From positions 1,387-65,386 of the forward strand of contig JBAWXN010000001.1 of the NCBI GenBank assembly GCA_037144045.1: DNA of 64,000 bases, written 5' to 3'. Numbering within the stretch: position 1 is the first letter of the stretch; each line of letters starts with the position of its first letter. A model generated the notes under the pieces. That model was not told where the DNA came from. It ran no database searches and saw nothing but the letters and a program-made list of their open reading frames with translations. Source of the stretch: a bacterium (GTDB lineage Bacteria > Patescibacteriota > Minisyncoccia > Phycocordibacterales > UBA1006). The translations under genes were made by a program, and so were the position numbers. Shown piece after piece: positions 3,284 to 7,665 of this stretch.

Positions 3284-4006
3284 ATGGCAACAAAGAAAAC
3301 AACCAAAACAGTTGATTTGAATGCTGCGGTATACAATATTTCTGGTAAAGAAGTATCTAAAATCGCTCTTCCTGAATCAGTATGGGGAGTGCAATGGAAT
3401 GCTGACCTTGTTCACCAAGTAGTAGTAGGGATGCAGTCAAATGCACGTACAGGTCTTGCAAATGCAAAGATGCGAGGTGAAGTATCAGGTACCGGGAAAA
3501 AGCCATGGCGACAAAAAGGAACTGGTCAAGCACGACACGGTTCTCGCCGATCACCTATTTGGGTAGGAGGTGGAGTTTCTCATGGTCCACGTTCTGATAA
3601 ATCATATGACAAGAAAATTAATCGTAAAATGAAGACAAAGGCGTTGTTTACAGCCCTTTCTCAGAAATTCCGCGATGGAAAAGTATTGTTTGTTGATTCA
3701 CTTGATCTTTCAGCAATCAAAACCAAAGATGCTATGAACGCCTTGGTAAACCTTGCAAAAGTTGAAGGATTCAACACCTTGAACACAAAGAAAGAAAATA
3801 ACATTTTCTTGGTAGTACCTAAGAAGTCAGAAACAACTGCAAAAAGTTTCCGCAACATCGCTCACGTAACCGTGGAAGAAGTTCGTAACCTAAACGCAGT
3901 AGATCTCTTGAACTATCGTTATGTGATCATGGCGAATCCTGAAGCAGTAAACGAAGCATTTGCTTCAAAAACGGTCGCAAAAGAAGTAACCGCGAAGAAC
4001 GCATAA
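3284..4006 (+). CDS. rplD: 50S ribosomal protein L4
   Basis: MATKK...WRQKGTGQARHGSRRSPIWVGGGVSHGP L4 signature. Start at ATG 3284 (ATGGCA context). Confidence 0.9.
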   Translation: MATKKTTKTVDLNAAVYNISGKEVSKIALPESVWGVQWNADLVHQVVVGMQSNARTGLANAKMRGEVSGTGKKPWRQKGTGQARHGSRRSPIWVGGGVSHGPRSDKSYDKKINRKMKTKALFTALSQKFRDGKVLFVDSLDLSAIKTKDAMNALVNLAKVEGFNTLNTKKENNIFLVVPKKSETTAKSFRNIAHVTVEEVRNLNAVDLLNYRYVIMANPEAVNEAFASKTVAKEVTAKNA

Positions 4007-4010
4007 TCAT

Positions 4011-4331
4011 ATGGCAACAAAAAAAGCTAAGAAAGAAGTTTCAGCTGATGTAAAACCAGTTGGAAATTCAGTGGTTATTGGTCCACGTGTTACTGAAAAA
4101 GCAGCCTACGCAAGTGAACGAAATGTATTTGTATTTAACGTTGCAATGGATGCGAACAAAATTCAAATCAAGCAAGCGATTAAAGAACTCTACAAAGTAA
4201 CTCCTATCAAAATTGCAATTGTGGTTACCAAACCAGAAGTTGTAGTTTTCCGAGGAAACCTTGGTAAAAAATCAGCATTCAAAAAAGCGTACGTAACCTT
4301 GAAAAAGGGAGATACGATTGACCTGAACTAA
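4011..4331 (+). CDS. rplW: 50S ribosomal protein L23
   Basis: size, position after rplD and KAAYASERNVFVFNVAMDANKIQIKQAIKELYKV match L23. Confidence 0.9.
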   Translation: MATKKAKKEVSADVKPVGNSVVIGPRVTEKAAYASERNVFVFNVAMDANKIQIKQAIKELYKVTPIKIAIVVTKPEVVVFRGNLGKKSAFKKAYVTLKKGDTIDLN

Positions 4332-4340
4332 TGGTTCAAA

Positions 4341-4364
4341 AAACACCCGCGCGGGTGTTTTTTG
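4341..4364 (+). terminator. intrinsic terminator inside the r-protein cluster (cacccgcgcgggtg + TTTTTT)
   Basis: Perfect GC-rich palindrome 4344-4357 followed by a T6 tract, immediately after the rplW stop. Confidence 0.7.
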
Positions 4365-4382
4365 TTGAGAAAAAATTTAATA

Positions 4383-4802
4383 ATGGCTGCTAGTATGGTC
4401 TCCATGGAATTCCTATTTAAGAAATTTAAAACCTGGTTTCTTCTTAAAGAAAAACTTCATGCTATACACGCAAAGCCGCCTTATTTTAACGAGTCGGATA
4501 TTTGGTGGTGTAGTATGGGTGAAAATATTGGCGTTGAGGTTAATGGAAAGAGTGAGCTTTTTTCAAGACCAGTACTTGTTTTAAGAAAGTTGTCACGAGA
4601 ATCTTTTTTAGGTATTCCTTTAACATCTCAAGAAAAGAAGGGTACTTGGTACGTTCCCATTACTCAAGGAAAAAGTGTTTCCTATGCGTTGTTAAATCAA
4701 GTACGATTACTTTCTACCAAACGTCTTTCTTCCAAGATGGGAAGCCTTGATGAAATAGATTTTAATAAAGTAAAATCAGGTTTTATAGACCTGATTTTGT
4801 AA
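4383..4802 (+). CDS. MazF/PemK-family (CcdB/MazF fold) endoribonuclease toxin-like protein with an N-terminal extension of about 35 aa
   Basis: SDIWWCSMGENIGVEVNGKSELFSRPVLVL aligns to MazF/EndoA GD(L/V)(I/Y)W(V/F)D..P..G.E..G.RP(A/V)(L/V)V(L/I). ALLNQVRLLSTKRL aligns to ILLEQIRTIDKQRL of B. subtilis EndoA. First ATG is 4383; the ORF-track start 4362 is a TTG inside the terminator T-tract. Confidence 0.6.
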   Translation: MAASMVSMEFLFKKFKTWFLLKEKLHAIHAKPPYFNESDIWWCSMGENIGVEVNGKSELFSRPVLVLRKLSRESFLGIPLTSQEKKGTWYVPITQGKSVSYALLNQVRLLSTKRLSSKMGSLDEIDFNKVKSGFIDLIL

Positions 4803-4932
4803 TATTTCCACTACTTGAGTGGACCGCGGGAAATCCCCGAAAGTAATTTAATTATAACCATGACGCTCCTAGTGTCAACATGGTACATTACTTACTTTAT
4901 TAAAAGTTTAGAAATAGCTGATTCAGTATTAG

Positions 4933-4960
4933 TTGACAAAAACCCTTAATTTGCTATAGT
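4933..4960 (+). promoter_or_regulatory. sigma70-like promoter (TTGACA -16- TATAGT) upstream of rplB
   Basis: consensus -35 TTGACA 4933-4938, 16-nt spacer, -10 TATAGT 4955-4960, about 150 nt upstream of the rplB ATG. Confidence 0.45.
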
Positions 4961-5045
4961 TTCCCAGTCACAGATCATCTTTTTACAGTGGTTGTTGGGA
5001 CAGAGACTTAGGCAATCTCATATTAAAAACTATCTTACCGGAAAG

Positions 5046-5096
5046 CCTTATCGGTAATTGAGTCCGACAAAGACGGACGAAGATCCGCCGATAAGG
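5046..5096 (+). promoter_or_regulatory. conserved-looking stem-loop in the rplB 5' leader (ccttatcgg ... ccgataagg with an inner gtccg/cggac hairpin)
   Basis: Perfect 9-bp inverted repeat 5046-5054 / 5088-5096 enclosing a second 5-bp hairpin, ends 13 nt before the rplB ATG. Candidate autoregulatory r-protein leader or processing site. Confidence 0.35.
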
Positions 5097-5109
5097 CGGA
5101 TGGACACAT

Positions 5110-5958
5110 ATGAAACACTATAAACCAACATCAAAGTCACGACGAATGATGTCAGTAGTAACTTACAAAGGAGTTATTACTACTAACGAACCTCACAAGG
5201 CGTTAACATTCGGACGTGCAAAACATGCAGGACGTAACAATCGAGGGATTGTTACCGTTCCCCACCAAGGAGGAGGAAACAAAAATCTTTACCGAATGGT
5301 GGACTTCAAATTTAACAAGAAAAACATCCCTGCTAAAGTTGAAACGATTGAATACGATCCAAACCGAACTGCATTCATCGCTCTTATTTGTTACCGTGAC
5401 GGTGAACGACGCTACATGCTCGTTCCTGCAACGGTTGCAGTAGGTGATGTTATTACTGTAGCAGCTGACGCACCATTGAAACCAGGAAACCGGTTACCAT
5501 TGCGATCAATTCCAGTAGGAACATTTATTTACAACATTGAATTGTATCCAGAAGCAGGTGCTAAATTAGTACGTTCAGCTGGAAACTTTGCTCAAGTACA
5601 AGGTCACGATAACGGAAAAGTTCAAATTAAATTACCTTCAGGTGAAATTCGAACCGTTTCTGACACGTGTTGGGCATCAGTGGGAACCGTATCAAACGGT
5701 GAACACCAATTAGTAAACCGAGGTAAAGCTGGTAAGTCACGATGGCTTGGAATTCGTCCAACCGTTCGTGGTACTGCTATGAACCCAGTAGACCACCCAC
5801 ACGGAGGAGGGGAAGGAGTTCAAGGAATTGGACTTCGCCGAGGACCAAAAACTCGACACGGGAAACAAGCGTACGGTGTTAAAACACGACGACCAAAGAA
5901 ATACTCAAATTACGCTATTATCACTCGTCGCAAGACGAAGCGAAATACGCCAAAATAA
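5110..5958 (+). CDS. rplB: 50S ribosomal protein L2
   Basis: MKHYKPTSKSRR...TFGRAKHAGRNNRG...PHGGGEG L2 signature. Confidence 0.95.
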   Translation: MKHYKPTSKSRRMMSVVTYKGVITTNEPHKALTFGRAKHAGRNNRGIVTVPHQGGGNKNLYRMVDFKFNKKNIPAKVETIEYDPNRTAFIALICYRDGERRYMLVPATVAVGDVITVAADAPLKPGNRLPLRSIPVGTFIYNIELYPEAGAKLVRSAGNFAQVQGHDNGKVQIKLPSGEIRTVSDTCWASVGTVSNGEHQLVNRGKAGKSRWLGIRPTVRGTAMNPVDHPHGGGEGVQGIGLRRGPKTRHGKQAYGVKTRRPKKYSNYAIITRRKTKRNTPK

Positions 5959-5975
5959 TTTGGTATTCACAAATC

Positions 5976-5996
5976 ATCCCTACGGGGATTTTTTGT
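5976..5996 (+). terminator. intrinsic terminator after rplB (atccc-tacg-gggat + T-run)
   Basis: hairpin followed by TTTTTTG. Confidence 0.6.
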
Positions 5997-6063: not shown

Positions 6064-7665
6064 TTATGTAGTTTTTTTAGTTCTGAGCACAAACGTAAGT
6101 GATACATACCGTTTGCCTACAGGTAGCCCTGTTTTGGCAACAGTAGTAACTTCTTGTGCAGTGGCTAATGCTTTATCACCTAAACGAGTACTAATATACG
6201 TTGCTCGGTTCAATGCTAAGTCCTCATTTTTTGCATAAGGAAGGACATCTGCAGTGCCGGTAACAATAATACTAAACCGCATCGGCATTTGAGCTGATAT
6301 GTCACTTAATTCTTCACTTACTACGTTGCTGCAGTAATAGAAAAAATTAGCAATGGTGGGTATTTCGAATTCACCAACAGGAAACAGTTGTTGAGTGGTA
6401 TCGCACCCGTTAAGTAATACTTCATAAGTAGTATCGTTAATAGCTCGAGCACTTAAACACGTGCCACGAAGTTCTTTCCTGTTACTCAGTTCAACTTCAA
6501 GATTGCGACTCACTGCTTTTTCCAGGGAATAGGCAGTATAGCTTACTTTTTTGCCGTACCGTGGTTTTGGTTGAACCACTACAGTGTCCGATGATTGTAG
6601 CTTTTCAGTAGGGATAACCGATTGAGGAGCAACTGATTTCGGTCGCGCCACTACCTTGGTAAGACCAAGGACACAGCTGTAATATGACTCAAGGTTTGCA
6701 ATCGTCCCTTTGGTAAGACCGAGGTCTTTCAAGTACCCATTCGACTGAAATTTTTCCCCCGCATCCCATAGGTCGAGGAGGTTGATCTTCATTTGGATAT
6801 TCATAGGTGCCTCACCTAATGTTGCTAGTTGCAAGAAACAGAGTTCCTTTACAATATCAGCATTAACATTACCCCATACATTCAATCGTTGCGCATTCGC
6901 CTCCTTAAATATATCAGTATTTCCCGCATTTAATGCAACCAGTACTTTCGTAGCTGGTGCCGCTTCAACGGATTCCGGATGTAATATGAGTTCTTTCGTT
7001 GCGGTGCAGTTGGGAAACTCACTAATCGTTTGTTTCTTGCCACCGCATGTGCAGGTACGCATGTCTTGCTTGTGGTAGTAACAATTCACTTGTTCCTGCC
7101 AAAGCGCCATGTAACCTTGTGCTTTTAAGCTGTCTTGGTCCCATGTATTCAATGAATTATACAAACGCATAATGTGTTCATAATGATCTTGAATACGCAC
7201 ATTTTCGGAATAGAATAATTCGCCCTGGATCTTCACCGTATAGTAATAGATTTGTCCCAGGACGTTAGTTGGTGGAACTGCTTTCACATTCATCTCTATT
7301 TCATCAATAGTAATACCTTTACCAATATCAGTAGTAAAAGAAAACAGACTAATATGCTTTTCAGCAGCTGTTTGCTCATACCAAGCACCAATGCCGGGGA
7401 ACACTTCTTCAAGTTTCTTTTTCATATTCGGGCACAATGCCTCGTATTTCCAGATTTGTTTCTGGATGGTTGGGTTTTTGCCGGCTTCGAAAGTAATTTT
7501 CTCCGCAGCGAATTTTTCTTGTGCGGAAATTGATCCAAGTTTCTGTAACGCAGCGTACTTACCGCTGGCGTCCTTCTTGGAAAGATAAATAGCGCGTACA
7601 TTTTGCGCATACGTGGTTGCAATGCTTATAGTGCATAGCAAGAGAATAAGCCCTAATTTTTTCAT
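6064..7665 (-). CDS. secreted Cys-rich hypothetical protein (signal peptide) with a possible degenerate OmpA-like C-terminal motif
   Basis: N-terminal MKKLGLILLLCTISIATTYA signal peptide; many Cys (CTCGGKK, PNCTATKE). C-terminal IVTGTADVLPYAKNEDLALNRATYISTRLGD resembles the OmpA_C core (GHTD..G....N..LS..RA..V..YL). No other recognisable domain. Confidence 0.55.
   Translation of the reverse strand: MKKLGLILLLCTISIATTYAQNVRAIYLSKKDASGKYAALQKLGSISAQEKFAAEKITFEAGKNPTIQKQIWKYEALCPNMKKKLEEVFPGIGAWYEQTAAEKHISLFSFTTDIGKGITIDEIEMNVKAVPPTNVLGQIYYYTVKIQGELFYSENVRIQDHYEHIMRLYNSLNTWDQDSLKAQGYMALWQEQVNCYYHKQDMRTCTCGGKKQTISEFPNCTATKELILHPESVEAAPATKVLVALNAGNTDIFKEANAQRLNVWGNVNADIVKELCFLQLATLGEAPMNIQMKINLLDLWDAGEKFQSNGYLKDLGLTKGTIANLESYYSCVLGLTKVVARPKSVAPQSVIPTEKLQSSDTVVVQPKPRYGKKVSYTAYSLEKAVSRNLEVELSNRKELRGTCLSARAINDTTYEVLLNGCDTTQQLFPVGEFEIPTIANFFYYCSNVVSEELSDISAQMPMRFSIIVTGTADVLPYAKNEDLALNRATYISTRLGDKALATAQEVTTVAKTGLPVGKRYVSLTFVLRTKKTT

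Follow-up and report, generated by a model that had tools for sequence, protein, structure and literature searches.

What holds a MazF-family toxin in check when its gene stands between the genes of ribosomal proteins L23 and L2, with no antitoxin gene of the expected kind at its side? The question is raised by a stretch of 64,000 nucleotides (hereafter the window) from a bacterium of the Patescibacteriota (lineage UBA1006; GenBank assembly GCA_037144045.1, contig JBAWXN010000001.1, positions 1,387 to 65,386 of the forward strand), in which an earlier note, made from the letters alone, had placed a solitary MazF/PemK-like toxin gene between rplW and rplB. MazF proteins are textbook toxins of toxin-antitoxin (TA) systems of type II, whose defining feature is a protein antitoxin. 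The analysis reported here suggests that positions 4388-4878 form a self-contained module composed of the toxin gene and a convergent small-RNA gene, and it appears reasonably probable that this RNA is the antitoxin, acting chiefly by antisense pairing, with direct binding to the toxin protein as a further possibility.

The toxin gene and the small RNA predicted beside it

The toxin gene (4404..4802, plus strand) is an intact open reading frame (ORF) in the ORF list of the window, with its stop at 4802, and by profile, fold and catalytic residues it is a gene for a MazF/PemK-family endoribonuclease, as the earlier note had proposed. The profile search suggested there, with Pfam PF02452 (PemK_toxin), gave a match at E=1.1e-11 and 45.3 bits (cut-off 23.1) over residues 39-135 of the 139-aa reading, covering profile positions 4-106 of 109, and this was the sole Pfam match at E<=1. 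The AlphaFold model, built on 33 homologues with a mean predicted local distance difference test score (pLDDT) of 84.9, has the SH3-like beta-barrel of the MazF fold, and in a Foldseek comparison with PDB the best 50 matches were all MazF, PemK or MoxT structures (probability 1.0, target-normalised template modelling score 0.6-0.79), led by the MazF proteins of S. aureus, M. tuberculosis, B. subtilis and E. coli. A PDB search with the single sequence returned a chance match only, and MazF structures were matched once a profile of the toxin family was used, B. subtilis EndoA/MazF (4MDX) at E=2e-7. In the alignment of this profile with 4MDX, the Arg of an FSRP motif falls on R25 and the T/S of an LTSQ motif on T48, which are the catalytic pair of the B. 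subtilis enzyme (R29 and T52 in E. coli MazF). The Arg is invariant in 33/33 aligned members, and the TSQ motif always begins with T or S. The MazF equivalog of NCBIfam was matched at a sub-threshold level only (16.5 bits against a cut-off of 120), so the protein is a member of the family and not an orthologue of E. coli MazF; the defence-system models of PADLOC gave no match to it.

The most likely start codon is the ATG at 4404, giving 132 aa, rather than that at 4383, from which a protein of 139 aa had originally been read. A start at 4404 agrees with an identical NCBI protein (P0001) and with all homologues, whereas in the closest relative, at a sister locus designated L091, the ATG at 4383 does not share the reading frame; this ATG also lies over the -10 box that belongs to the toxin. 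The N-terminal segment (about 35 aa), initially described as unique and as a possible internal antitoxin, turned out to be a signature (F..W..LKEKLH, with W11, L14 and K15 invariant) conserved in more than 300 relatives, nearly all of them from Patescibacteria. It forms a helix of lower confidence (residues 2-20) in the AlphaFold model that is absent from classical MazF, and, together with a strongly conserved loop (GENxGxExNGK), it is specific to this family. The segment is basic and amphipathic, unlike the acidic tail of MazE, and nothing points to a neutralising role.

The absence of an adjacent MazE/PemI-type antitoxin was borne out, since neither flank of the toxin has a conserved ORF of at least 20 aa. 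The most compact copies of the family leave only 3-9 nt between the upstream gene and the toxin, and the downstream gene begins 65-75 nt after it, with only the RNA element described below in between, so that a protein antitoxin has no room. Three kinds of candidate, none of them conserved and with frames interrupted by indels in L091, were rejected in the course of this search: a 44-aa ORF at 4815-4949 (plus strand), a 25-aa ORF at 4811-4888 (minus strand), and ORFs of 31-33 aa called in two other loci (L001 and L005). Variants of the toxin fused to an HTH_3 domain still carry the RNA element. In these variants (L092:2501-3207, P0071, P0098 and P0109) an N-terminal HTH_3 (XRE) domain is joined to the toxin to give 215 aa, beside a Bro-N gene, and the RNA element scores 54.9 bits.

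The RNA element is a conserved block of about 75 nt immediately 3' of the stop codon, defined in an alignment from six unrelated insertion sites. It contains a GC-rich hairpin (A) whose pairing is kept while its sequence varies, a short hairpin (B) of conserved sequence, and -10 and -35 boxes in reverse complement with a non-conserved spacer. On the minus strand of the window, a -35 box TTGACA (4878-4873) and a -10 box TATAAT (4856-4851), separated by 16 nt, match the consensus at 12/12 positions. The predicted core of the small RNA (4803..4844, minus strand, by the covariance model and a conserved start A) would start at A4844, run through hairpins B and A and end at the toxin stop codon. Hairpin B (4839-4827) has a 4-bp stem, a conserved AUUU-type loop and near-invariant UU and CG flanks, with 98.4% of alignment cells paired and 100% identity in L091. 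Hairpin A (4823-4807; 93.7% of cells paired) is a GC-rich variable stem followed on the minus strand by an A/U-rich tail; it abuts the toxin stop codon and would usually serve as the terminator of the small RNA. A third hairpin with a U-run (4798-4772), a terminator-like match within the last toxin codons, is kept in L091 through a compensatory change from T-A to C-G in spite of an amino-acid change, and it is probably the real terminator in this lineage, so that the small RNA would extend from 4844 to about 4765 and measure about 80 nt. The fold of this 80-nt RNA has -23.1 kcal/mol (z=-3.84). Overall, a small RNA of 45-80 nt, convergent to the toxin, is predicted.

Promoter, terminator tail and wobble pairs agree in suggesting that this RNA is transcribed from the minus strand. 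Over 91 modules, the -35 box is occupied by the consensus bases in the order T88, T89, G86, A75, C71 and A57 (45 perfect), the -10 box follows TAnnnT in 86-89, the spacer is 16-17 nt in 77/91, and an A stands 7 nt past the -10 box, at the expected start site, in 83/91. The promoter is conserved on the minus strand only, while its spacers vary. Similarly, the U-rich run past hairpin A (alignment columns 77-86) is found on the minus strand only, which is why hairpin A is read as an intrinsic terminator at the toxin stop codon. There are 20 G.U against 7 A.C wobble pairs, favouring the minus strand, and hairpin A of L091 includes a U.G pair whose plus-strand counterpart would be mismatched (C.A).

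The structure itself is supported by covariation. A minus-strand covariance model gave 91 matches in 654 kb, all of them adjoining a toxin ORF, and its sole match in the 64 kb of the window lies at 4790-4854 (minus strand; 46.8 bits, E=2e-5). Standard pairs make up 95.6% of cells compared with 73.4% in shuffles (0/500 shuffles reach 95.6%), changes on both sides of a pair are found in 208 cells compared with 64, and when the partners are slid by 1-3 columns only 49-61% remain paired. Both-sides changes occur at all six modelled pairs of hairpin A. In hairpin B, 48 rows have UA and 40 have CG at the closing pair (18:30), and the inner pair (21:27) is GC in 57 and CG in 33; the flanking UU stands in 90-91 of 91 rows, G19 in 91/91 and the flanking CG in 86-89 of 91. 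Rfam 15 gave no match in the window at gathering thresholds; at E<=10, within 4300-5150, there were weak matches elsewhere, mostly to the rplW terminator, and only MIR7504 (4764-4806) touches the 3' edge of the element. Full-text literature searches turned up no account of this RNA, nor of a MazF-RNA pair in the Candidate Phyla Radiation (CPR).

The strongest evolutionary argument comes from the joint occurrence of the two genes. By nhmmer, the element was found 3' of the toxin in 92 of about 99 ORFs. Where it was missed, at a contig end, in a frameshifted ORF, in read-through ORFs and in diverged copies, the element was recognised by eye or by the covariance model, so that 0 of about 98 assessable toxins lack the RNA gene. 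In the reciprocal direction, metagenome contigs were scanned with a degenerate 21-nt pattern of hairpin B, which gave 120 matches, 106 of them with at least 450 nt upstream. A toxin-family ORF stood directly upstream in 72/106; among the other 34, 23 had no covariance-model match and were chance pattern matches, whereas 11 were complete elements (40.8-70.2 bits). Thus 11/83 RNA genes occur without a toxin. These orphan small-RNA genes have intact promoters (L132, L156, L182, L108, L122, L124, L141, L158, L174, L185 and L188), and at least three of them (L132, L156 and L182) retain the last toxin codons (KFKDLYCP*, ..DFARVRDGFWKLYK* and GFKNLYCFI*). The small RNA is read as the antitoxin because the antidote can outlive the toxin and never the reverse. 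The description of the gene as an orphan therefore does not hold, as every assessable family member has a partner RNA gene. The idea, also raised in the earlier note, that structured RNA downstream could neutralise the toxin pointed in the right direction; the candidate is an RNA of about 45-80 nt from the opposite strand and not the whole of 4803-5109. Likewise, the search of that interval suggested there for a micro-ORF or an antisense RNA yielded no conserved micro-ORF and a predicted convergent (antisense) small-RNA gene.

Several other features of the element were observed. A perfect 14-nt inverted repeat (4760-4773 and 4892-4905; TTTTAATAAAGTAA and TTACTTTATTAAAA) brackets the small-RNA unit in the window but has no conserved counterpart in L091. 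In 10/90 modules (L006, L012, L031, L042, L047, L048, L051, L053, L058 and L068) a perfect DnaA box (TTATCCACA or its reverse orientation) precedes the small-RNA -35 box by 5-20 nt, against a background of 0.04 per kb, and none is present in the window copy. In about a dozen copies the stop codon has been lost and the ORF runs through the RNA element, giving tails such as PP..GGRG..P that are translated hairpins (proteins P0033, P0050, P0054, P0057, P0065 and P0077; loci L006, L011, L020, L024, L032, L036, L052, L059, L063 and L072).

Mode of action and alternative explanations

That the small RNA is the neutralising partner of the toxin seems quite likely; that it neutralises mainly as an antisense RNA is a more tentative proposal, plausible without being the expected outcome. 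In this scheme, the toxin gene would be transcribed from its own weak extended -10 promoter into a leaderless mRNA, and the small RNA from about 4844 by a near-consensus sigma-70 promoter on the opposite strand. Because there is no plus-strand terminator between the toxin stop codon and the small-RNA promoter, the toxin mRNA is expected to span the region and to be fully complementary to the small RNA, and for the same reason the polycistronic transcript of operon-embedded copies, running into the next gene, would likewise hold the complement. Most economically, the small RNA would pair with the 3' end of the toxin transcript, the duplex would be cut by an RNase III-type activity and the message would decay, by which toxin synthesis would be held below a harmful level. 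If the module were lost, or small-RNA synthesis fell, toxin would be made and cellular RNA cleaved. In addition, the motif of hairpin B may allow the RNA to bind the toxin protein directly. The promoters are unequal, with a perfect small-RNA -35 box in 45/91 modules and, in only about a quarter of copies, a toxin promoter made up of an extended -10 that lacks a -35 box; a weak toxin promoter facing a consensus small-RNA promoter would be the usual arrangement of low toxin and high antitoxin. The module is best read as one whose architecture resembles type I and whose action may resemble type III.

A number of points weigh against antisense control. The start codon of the leaderless mRNA and the complementary site are about 400 nt apart, so the RNA could act only through mRNA decay and not by blocking initiation, and no conserved complementarity of the small RNA to the toxin 5' end was found across loci. 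Where the module is embedded in an operon, essential polycistronic transcripts would be paired by the small RNA as well. In the window, hairpin A is weak and its U-tract poor, so that termination relies on the third hairpin; the same hairpins form when the plus-strand complement is folded (z=-2.5), and the wobble asymmetry of 20 to 7 is only moderate. The alignment used for counting covariation had been fitted to the model. The Campylobacterota relatives of the toxin, described below, gave no significant match to the covariance model, their architecture being shared and not their sequence. Finally, antisense pairing by itself leaves unexplained why hairpin B and its flanks are near-invariant across very distant CPR lineages.

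This last point is what would be expected if a protein reads hairpin B only, with hairpin A free to vary, and it leads, with the distant pairing site, to the main though unlikely rival, in which the small RNA binds the MazF-like protein as a pseudo-substrate through hairpin B and its UU/CG flanks, in the manner of type III systems, and complementarity to the mRNA is a by-product of the layout. The toxin is the sole protein that always co-occurs with the RNA, and the intact orphan small-RNA genes, scoring up to 70 bits, fit an inhibitor that acts in trans on paralogous toxins. MazF proteins bind single-stranded RNA in a sequence-specific manner, and RNA inhibits the type III toxin ToxN, whose fold is related. 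The 5' end of the small RNA, (U)ACAUU, resembles UACAU, which we take to be the site of the B. subtilis and S. aureus MazF enzymes, and is a lead only. Against such binding, there is neither a repeat array nor a sign of processing by the toxin, the Campylobacterota relatives (toxins 35-48% identical) keep the architecture but not hairpin B's sequence, and, since the layout makes antisense pairing unavoidable, direct binding adds a further assumption. Were it correct, the module would represent a TA class that has so far escaped recognition, with a MazF-family (type II) toxin inhibited by a bound, single-copy structured RNA from a strong convergent promoter of its own (type III-like without repeats), as the main partner of MazF in CPR, where modules have spread to junctions within essential operons, and with a diverged branch on plasmids and prophages of Campylobacterota; we regard this, too, as rather doubtful.

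The remaining explanations are much less probable. The element might be a device of transcription control or of mobility, in which promoter and hairpins insulate or couple host operons by interference, or the hairpins form a single-stranded DNA site like attC or REP. The modules do lie inside operons, mostly co-directional with both neighbours (51/83), at many junctions and with several copies per genome, one of them between direct repeats of about 80 nt, and covarying hairpins are also typical of single-stranded DNA recombination sites. No integrase or transposase is consistently found near the modules, however, and the promoter is placed to transcribe exactly the two hairpins, with a U-run after them and a wobble bias that indicates a minus-strand RNA; that orphan elements keep intact promoters after toxin loss would be odd for a device serving a cassette. 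These points make the device very improbable. A dedicated RNA-processing or RNA-binding protein, which has the small RNA as its substrate or cofactor in a small ribonucleoprotein with a cellular or defence role, is slightly more improbable still. The strict linkage of protein and RNA, the family-specific loops (GENxGxExNGK) and N-terminal helix, and a prophage relative that is constitutively expressed as protein without obvious harm (PMC3995785) would suit it, but the protein retains the catalytic dyad of a bona fide toxin, its copy number, scattered sites and carriage by plasmid and prophage are typical of addiction modules, and the RNA has no variable single-stranded, guide-like segment and persists while toxin genes decay. 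The least credible explanation is that of the earlier note, a true orphan expressed by ribosomal read-through as a growth regulator and checked by its N-terminal extension or by a factor in trans. It drew on the lack of an adjacent protein antitoxin, the position in the S10 operon and the N-terminal helix (residues 2-20) added to the MazF core in the AlphaFold model, and an antitoxin encoded in trans has a precedent in MazF-mx and MrpC. It is contradicted by the upstream terminator and the toxin's own promoter, by the same module in non-ribosomal operons, by a helix that is family-wide and basic rather than acidic, and by the partner RNA gene that is always present.

Operon junctions and the site between L23 and L2

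The toxin family has 204 relatives in the protein database and 335 in a scan of one genome per species, nearly all of them in Patescibacteria (Saccharibacteria, Paceibacteria/Parcubacteria, Peregrinibacteria and Gracilibacteria), often with several per genome. A look-up of the window protein by its exact sequence led to no recorded contig. Solo toxins were found between atpA and atpG (two genomes), between rpoB and rpoC, after rpoC and inside a glycosyltransferase operon, and a Pfam census of the neighbouring genes, about 75 on either side of the modules, revealed recurrent sites between the halves of a split transketolase (4-7 loci), between pheS and pheT, between rplB and rpsS, and at Mur ligase genes. 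The ribosomal context of the window copy is thus incidental, since the same module sits in many non-ribosomal operons, and the suggestion of a regulator coupled to ribosome biogenesis loses its ground with the occurrence of the module in the operons of ATP synthase, RNA polymerase, transketolase and pheST as well as in murein and glycosyltransferase operons. The family behaves as a mobile module that settles at intergenic junctions of operons, and the module is probably an addictive element spread over such junctions in CPR, for which the L23-L2 junction would be one site, inherited by at least two related lineages. In IMG/VR viral contigs no toxin relative was detected, so carriage by CPR phages is not supported.

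Individual loci offer some further observations. One 8-kb stretch (L029:1-7852) contains five or six diverged toxin and small-RNA modules (39-53% identity to the query), one of them inverted. In two loci of a single metagenome-assembled genome (L042:3900-4560 and L048:3980-4560), homology extends from 18 nt 5' of the ATG past the small-RNA promoter into the 5' end of a downstream signal-peptide gene, and the L042 module lies between direct repeats of about 80 nt that consist of the promoter and first codons of this gene, which hints at the mode of spread. A toxin-bearing ATP synthase operon carries another foreign gene, of the 23S_rRNA_IVP four-helix-bundle family, between atpG and atpD (L001:5598-5960). 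The copies of Peribacteria (L046, L057, L060, L066 and L079) share a motif, TTCAGG..(T)TTCAGGACA followed by TTTTTTATAAT, 60-20 nt 5' of the toxin ATG, which may be an operator or promoter of that clade.

In the window, the toxin gene follows rplW (ribosomal protein L23; 4011..4331, plus strand), an ORF with 71% tblastn identity to its L091 counterpart, which has the Pfam domain Ribosomal_L23. Just 3' of rplW, a perfect 14-nt inverted repeat at 4337..4364 (plus strand) is the intrinsic terminator of the tuf-rpsJ-rplCDW transcript (12-bp stem and U-run, -16.3 kcal/mol, z=-3.3), in which L091 has changes in the loop only. The position of the gene between rplW and rplB and the strong terminator before it, both described in the earlier note, are hence borne out. 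The toxin's extended -10 promoter, TGcTAGTAT (4388..4396, plus strand; read from the sequence), ends 7 nt before the ATG at 4404; its L091 counterpart is TGtTAGTTT, 6 nt before the ATG, and a TGnTAnnnT motif 6-8 nt before the start codon is present in 18/91 modules, a sharp peak over about 0.2 per position elsewhere. Such a promoter close to the ATG predicts a leaderless toxin mRNA. The strong terminator upstream and the promoter of its own, kept in L091, indicate that the toxin does not depend on read-through from the ribosomal operon, as had been assumed at first. Other copies, 3-9 nt from the upstream gene, are necessarily read through from their operon.

On the 3' side of the toxin, the convergent small-RNA gene (4803-4878) is followed by the rplB promoter and then by a leader. 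The rplB promoter (4933..4960, plus strand), a strong one that would restore expression of this downstream host gene, reads TTGACA, 16 nt, TGcTATAGT, matching the consensus at 11/12 positions with the TG, and both boxes are identical in L091. The leader (4967..5109, plus strand; about 145 nt) is a structured 5' region belonging to the host gene and outside the toxin module, with a fold of -37.9 kcal/mol (z=-2.4) and a long hairpin with arms at 5045-5054 and 5088-5097. L091 conserves both the promoter and the initial portion of the leader, the stretch ATCTTACCGGAAAGCCTTATCGGTAAT being identical there, and no Rfam match was found to the leader, which might be an unrecognised ribosomal-protein leader. 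The gene rplB (ribosomal protein L2; 5110..5958, plus strand) is an ORF whose product is 92% identical to L2 of L091.

The occupied junction is not unique to the window, since L091 has a 72%-identical toxin at the same place. The interval between rplW and rplB is 778 nt in the window and at most about 15 nt in two other CPR loci (L078 and L021). It is therefore regarded as an insertion inherited within a lineage, because L091 shares the toxin site while the genes of L078 and L021 nearly abut. A check of related genomes for the insertion, proposed in the earlier note, accordingly found it in L091 and not in L078 or L021. The host has probably compensated for the insertion at this site, with a terminator upstream and a dedicated rplB promoter downstream. 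The S10-type operon ends after rplB, where a terminator-like hairpin (5976-5989) is followed by a convergent minus-strand gene of 533 aa (6064-7665), and rpsS, rplV and rpsC are not downstream of the window rplB, which is unusual for bacteria.

Relation to known systems and significance

The module combines features of several known systems. With the type II systems MazEF and PemIK (Kid-Kis) it shares the toxin family and fold (PF02452) and the catalytic Arg and Thr, but it lacks an adjacent MazE/PemI gene (AbrB or RHH, that is ribbon-helix-helix, fold) and has an extra N-terminal helix, and its partner is a convergent downstream small-RNA gene rather than a co-transcribed upstream protein gene. 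Like the type I systems txpA/RatA and bsrG/SR4 of B. subtilis and the par system (Fst, RNA I/RNA II) of pAD1, as generally known, it would have a cis-encoded small RNA directed toward the toxin from a strong promoter, a 3' overlap with the toxin mRNA, a terminator hairpin at the junction and decay triggered by the duplex, all of which are predicted from the sequence in the present case. Type I toxins are small (<60 aa) hydrophobic membrane peptides, with SymE and RalR as exceptions, whereas the toxin of the module is a soluble RNase of 132 aa; moreover, the module RNA has a hairpin of conserved sequence across distant lineages, which pairing in cis does not need. With the type III systems ToxIN, CptIN and TenpIN it would have in common, as these are generally known, an endoribonuclease of MazF/Kid-like fold with a structured RNA and a terminator that helps to set the ratio of the two. 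The type III antitoxin consists of tandem repeats upstream on the same transcript, and no such repeats were found in 3900-5300; the module RNA is single-copy, downstream and convergent, with its own promoter, and the toxin belongs to PemK and not to ToxN/AbiQ, CptN or TenpN, with no evidence of processing. Finally, MazF-mx of Myxococcus xanthus is also a MazF homologue without an adjacent mazE gene, but its antitoxin is a protein encoded elsewhere, the transcription factor MrpC, and to our knowledge there is no conserved RNA gene adjacent to it.

Outside CPR, tblastn detected relatives with 35-48% identity on plasmids of Campylobacterota (among them pVir of C. jejuni, one of 5.8 kb from H. suis and one from Nitratiruptor) and in the C. 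jejuni prophage CJIE4. All are solo genes, located after a relaxase gene in H. suis (L214:1423-1818), between terminase and portal genes in CJIE4 (L216:1411-1845) and alone in a gap in pVir, and those of CJIE4 and H. suis are inserted alone among conserved co-directional genes. In each of them a GC hairpin directly adjoins the stop codon and is followed on the minus strand by a U-rich tail (the L216 terminator; folds). The CJIE4 protein (CJE1470) is 48% identical over 78 residues and has a minus-strand terminator hairpin at its stop codon; it differs in belonging to a prophage of a cultivated proteobacterial-type host, in having no RNA partner described so far and in not conserving the sequence of hairpin B. 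It has no MazE and was detected as a protein by proteomics (Clark et al. 2014, PMC3995785).

The pVir relative (NC_008770, 30634-31038), a solo toxin with 35% identity, likewise carries the N-terminal F..W motif and a GC hairpin that abuts its stop codon, and about 90 nt downstream there is a convergent promoter (TTGATT, 17 nt, TGnTATAAT with an extended -10). A pair of an RNA antitoxin (cjrA) and a protein toxin (cjpT) has been reported on pVir (Shen et al. 2016, Mol Microbiol 101:909, as cited in PMC10470494 and PMC7826846), and an antisense RNA antitoxin on this plasmid is reported as experimentally validated. The solo PemK homologue of pVir (WP_011117588.1) may be CjpT, an unverified lead, as no database name links CjpT to that ORF.

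The toxin protein is a new member of a known family; what is new are the pairing of a MazF-family gene with a convergent small-RNA gene and an RNA motif absent from Rfam. A branch of the MazF family with more than 300 species-level representatives, mostly in CPR, has apparently exchanged its protein partner for a small RNA. If this is true, the RNA would be a new structured family with about 170 examples and clean covariation, the boundaries between types I, II and III would be blurred, and the orphan look of many solitary MazF genes, including those of Campylobacter plasmids and prophage CJIE4, would be explained. Should cjrA/cjpT be homologous, there would be one experimental precedent, of which the CPR branch would be a large unrecognised extension. 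It would also follow that selfish modules can settle among the essential co-transcribed genes of minimal genomes and that their hosts compensate, as with the terminator and the new rplB promoter in the window.

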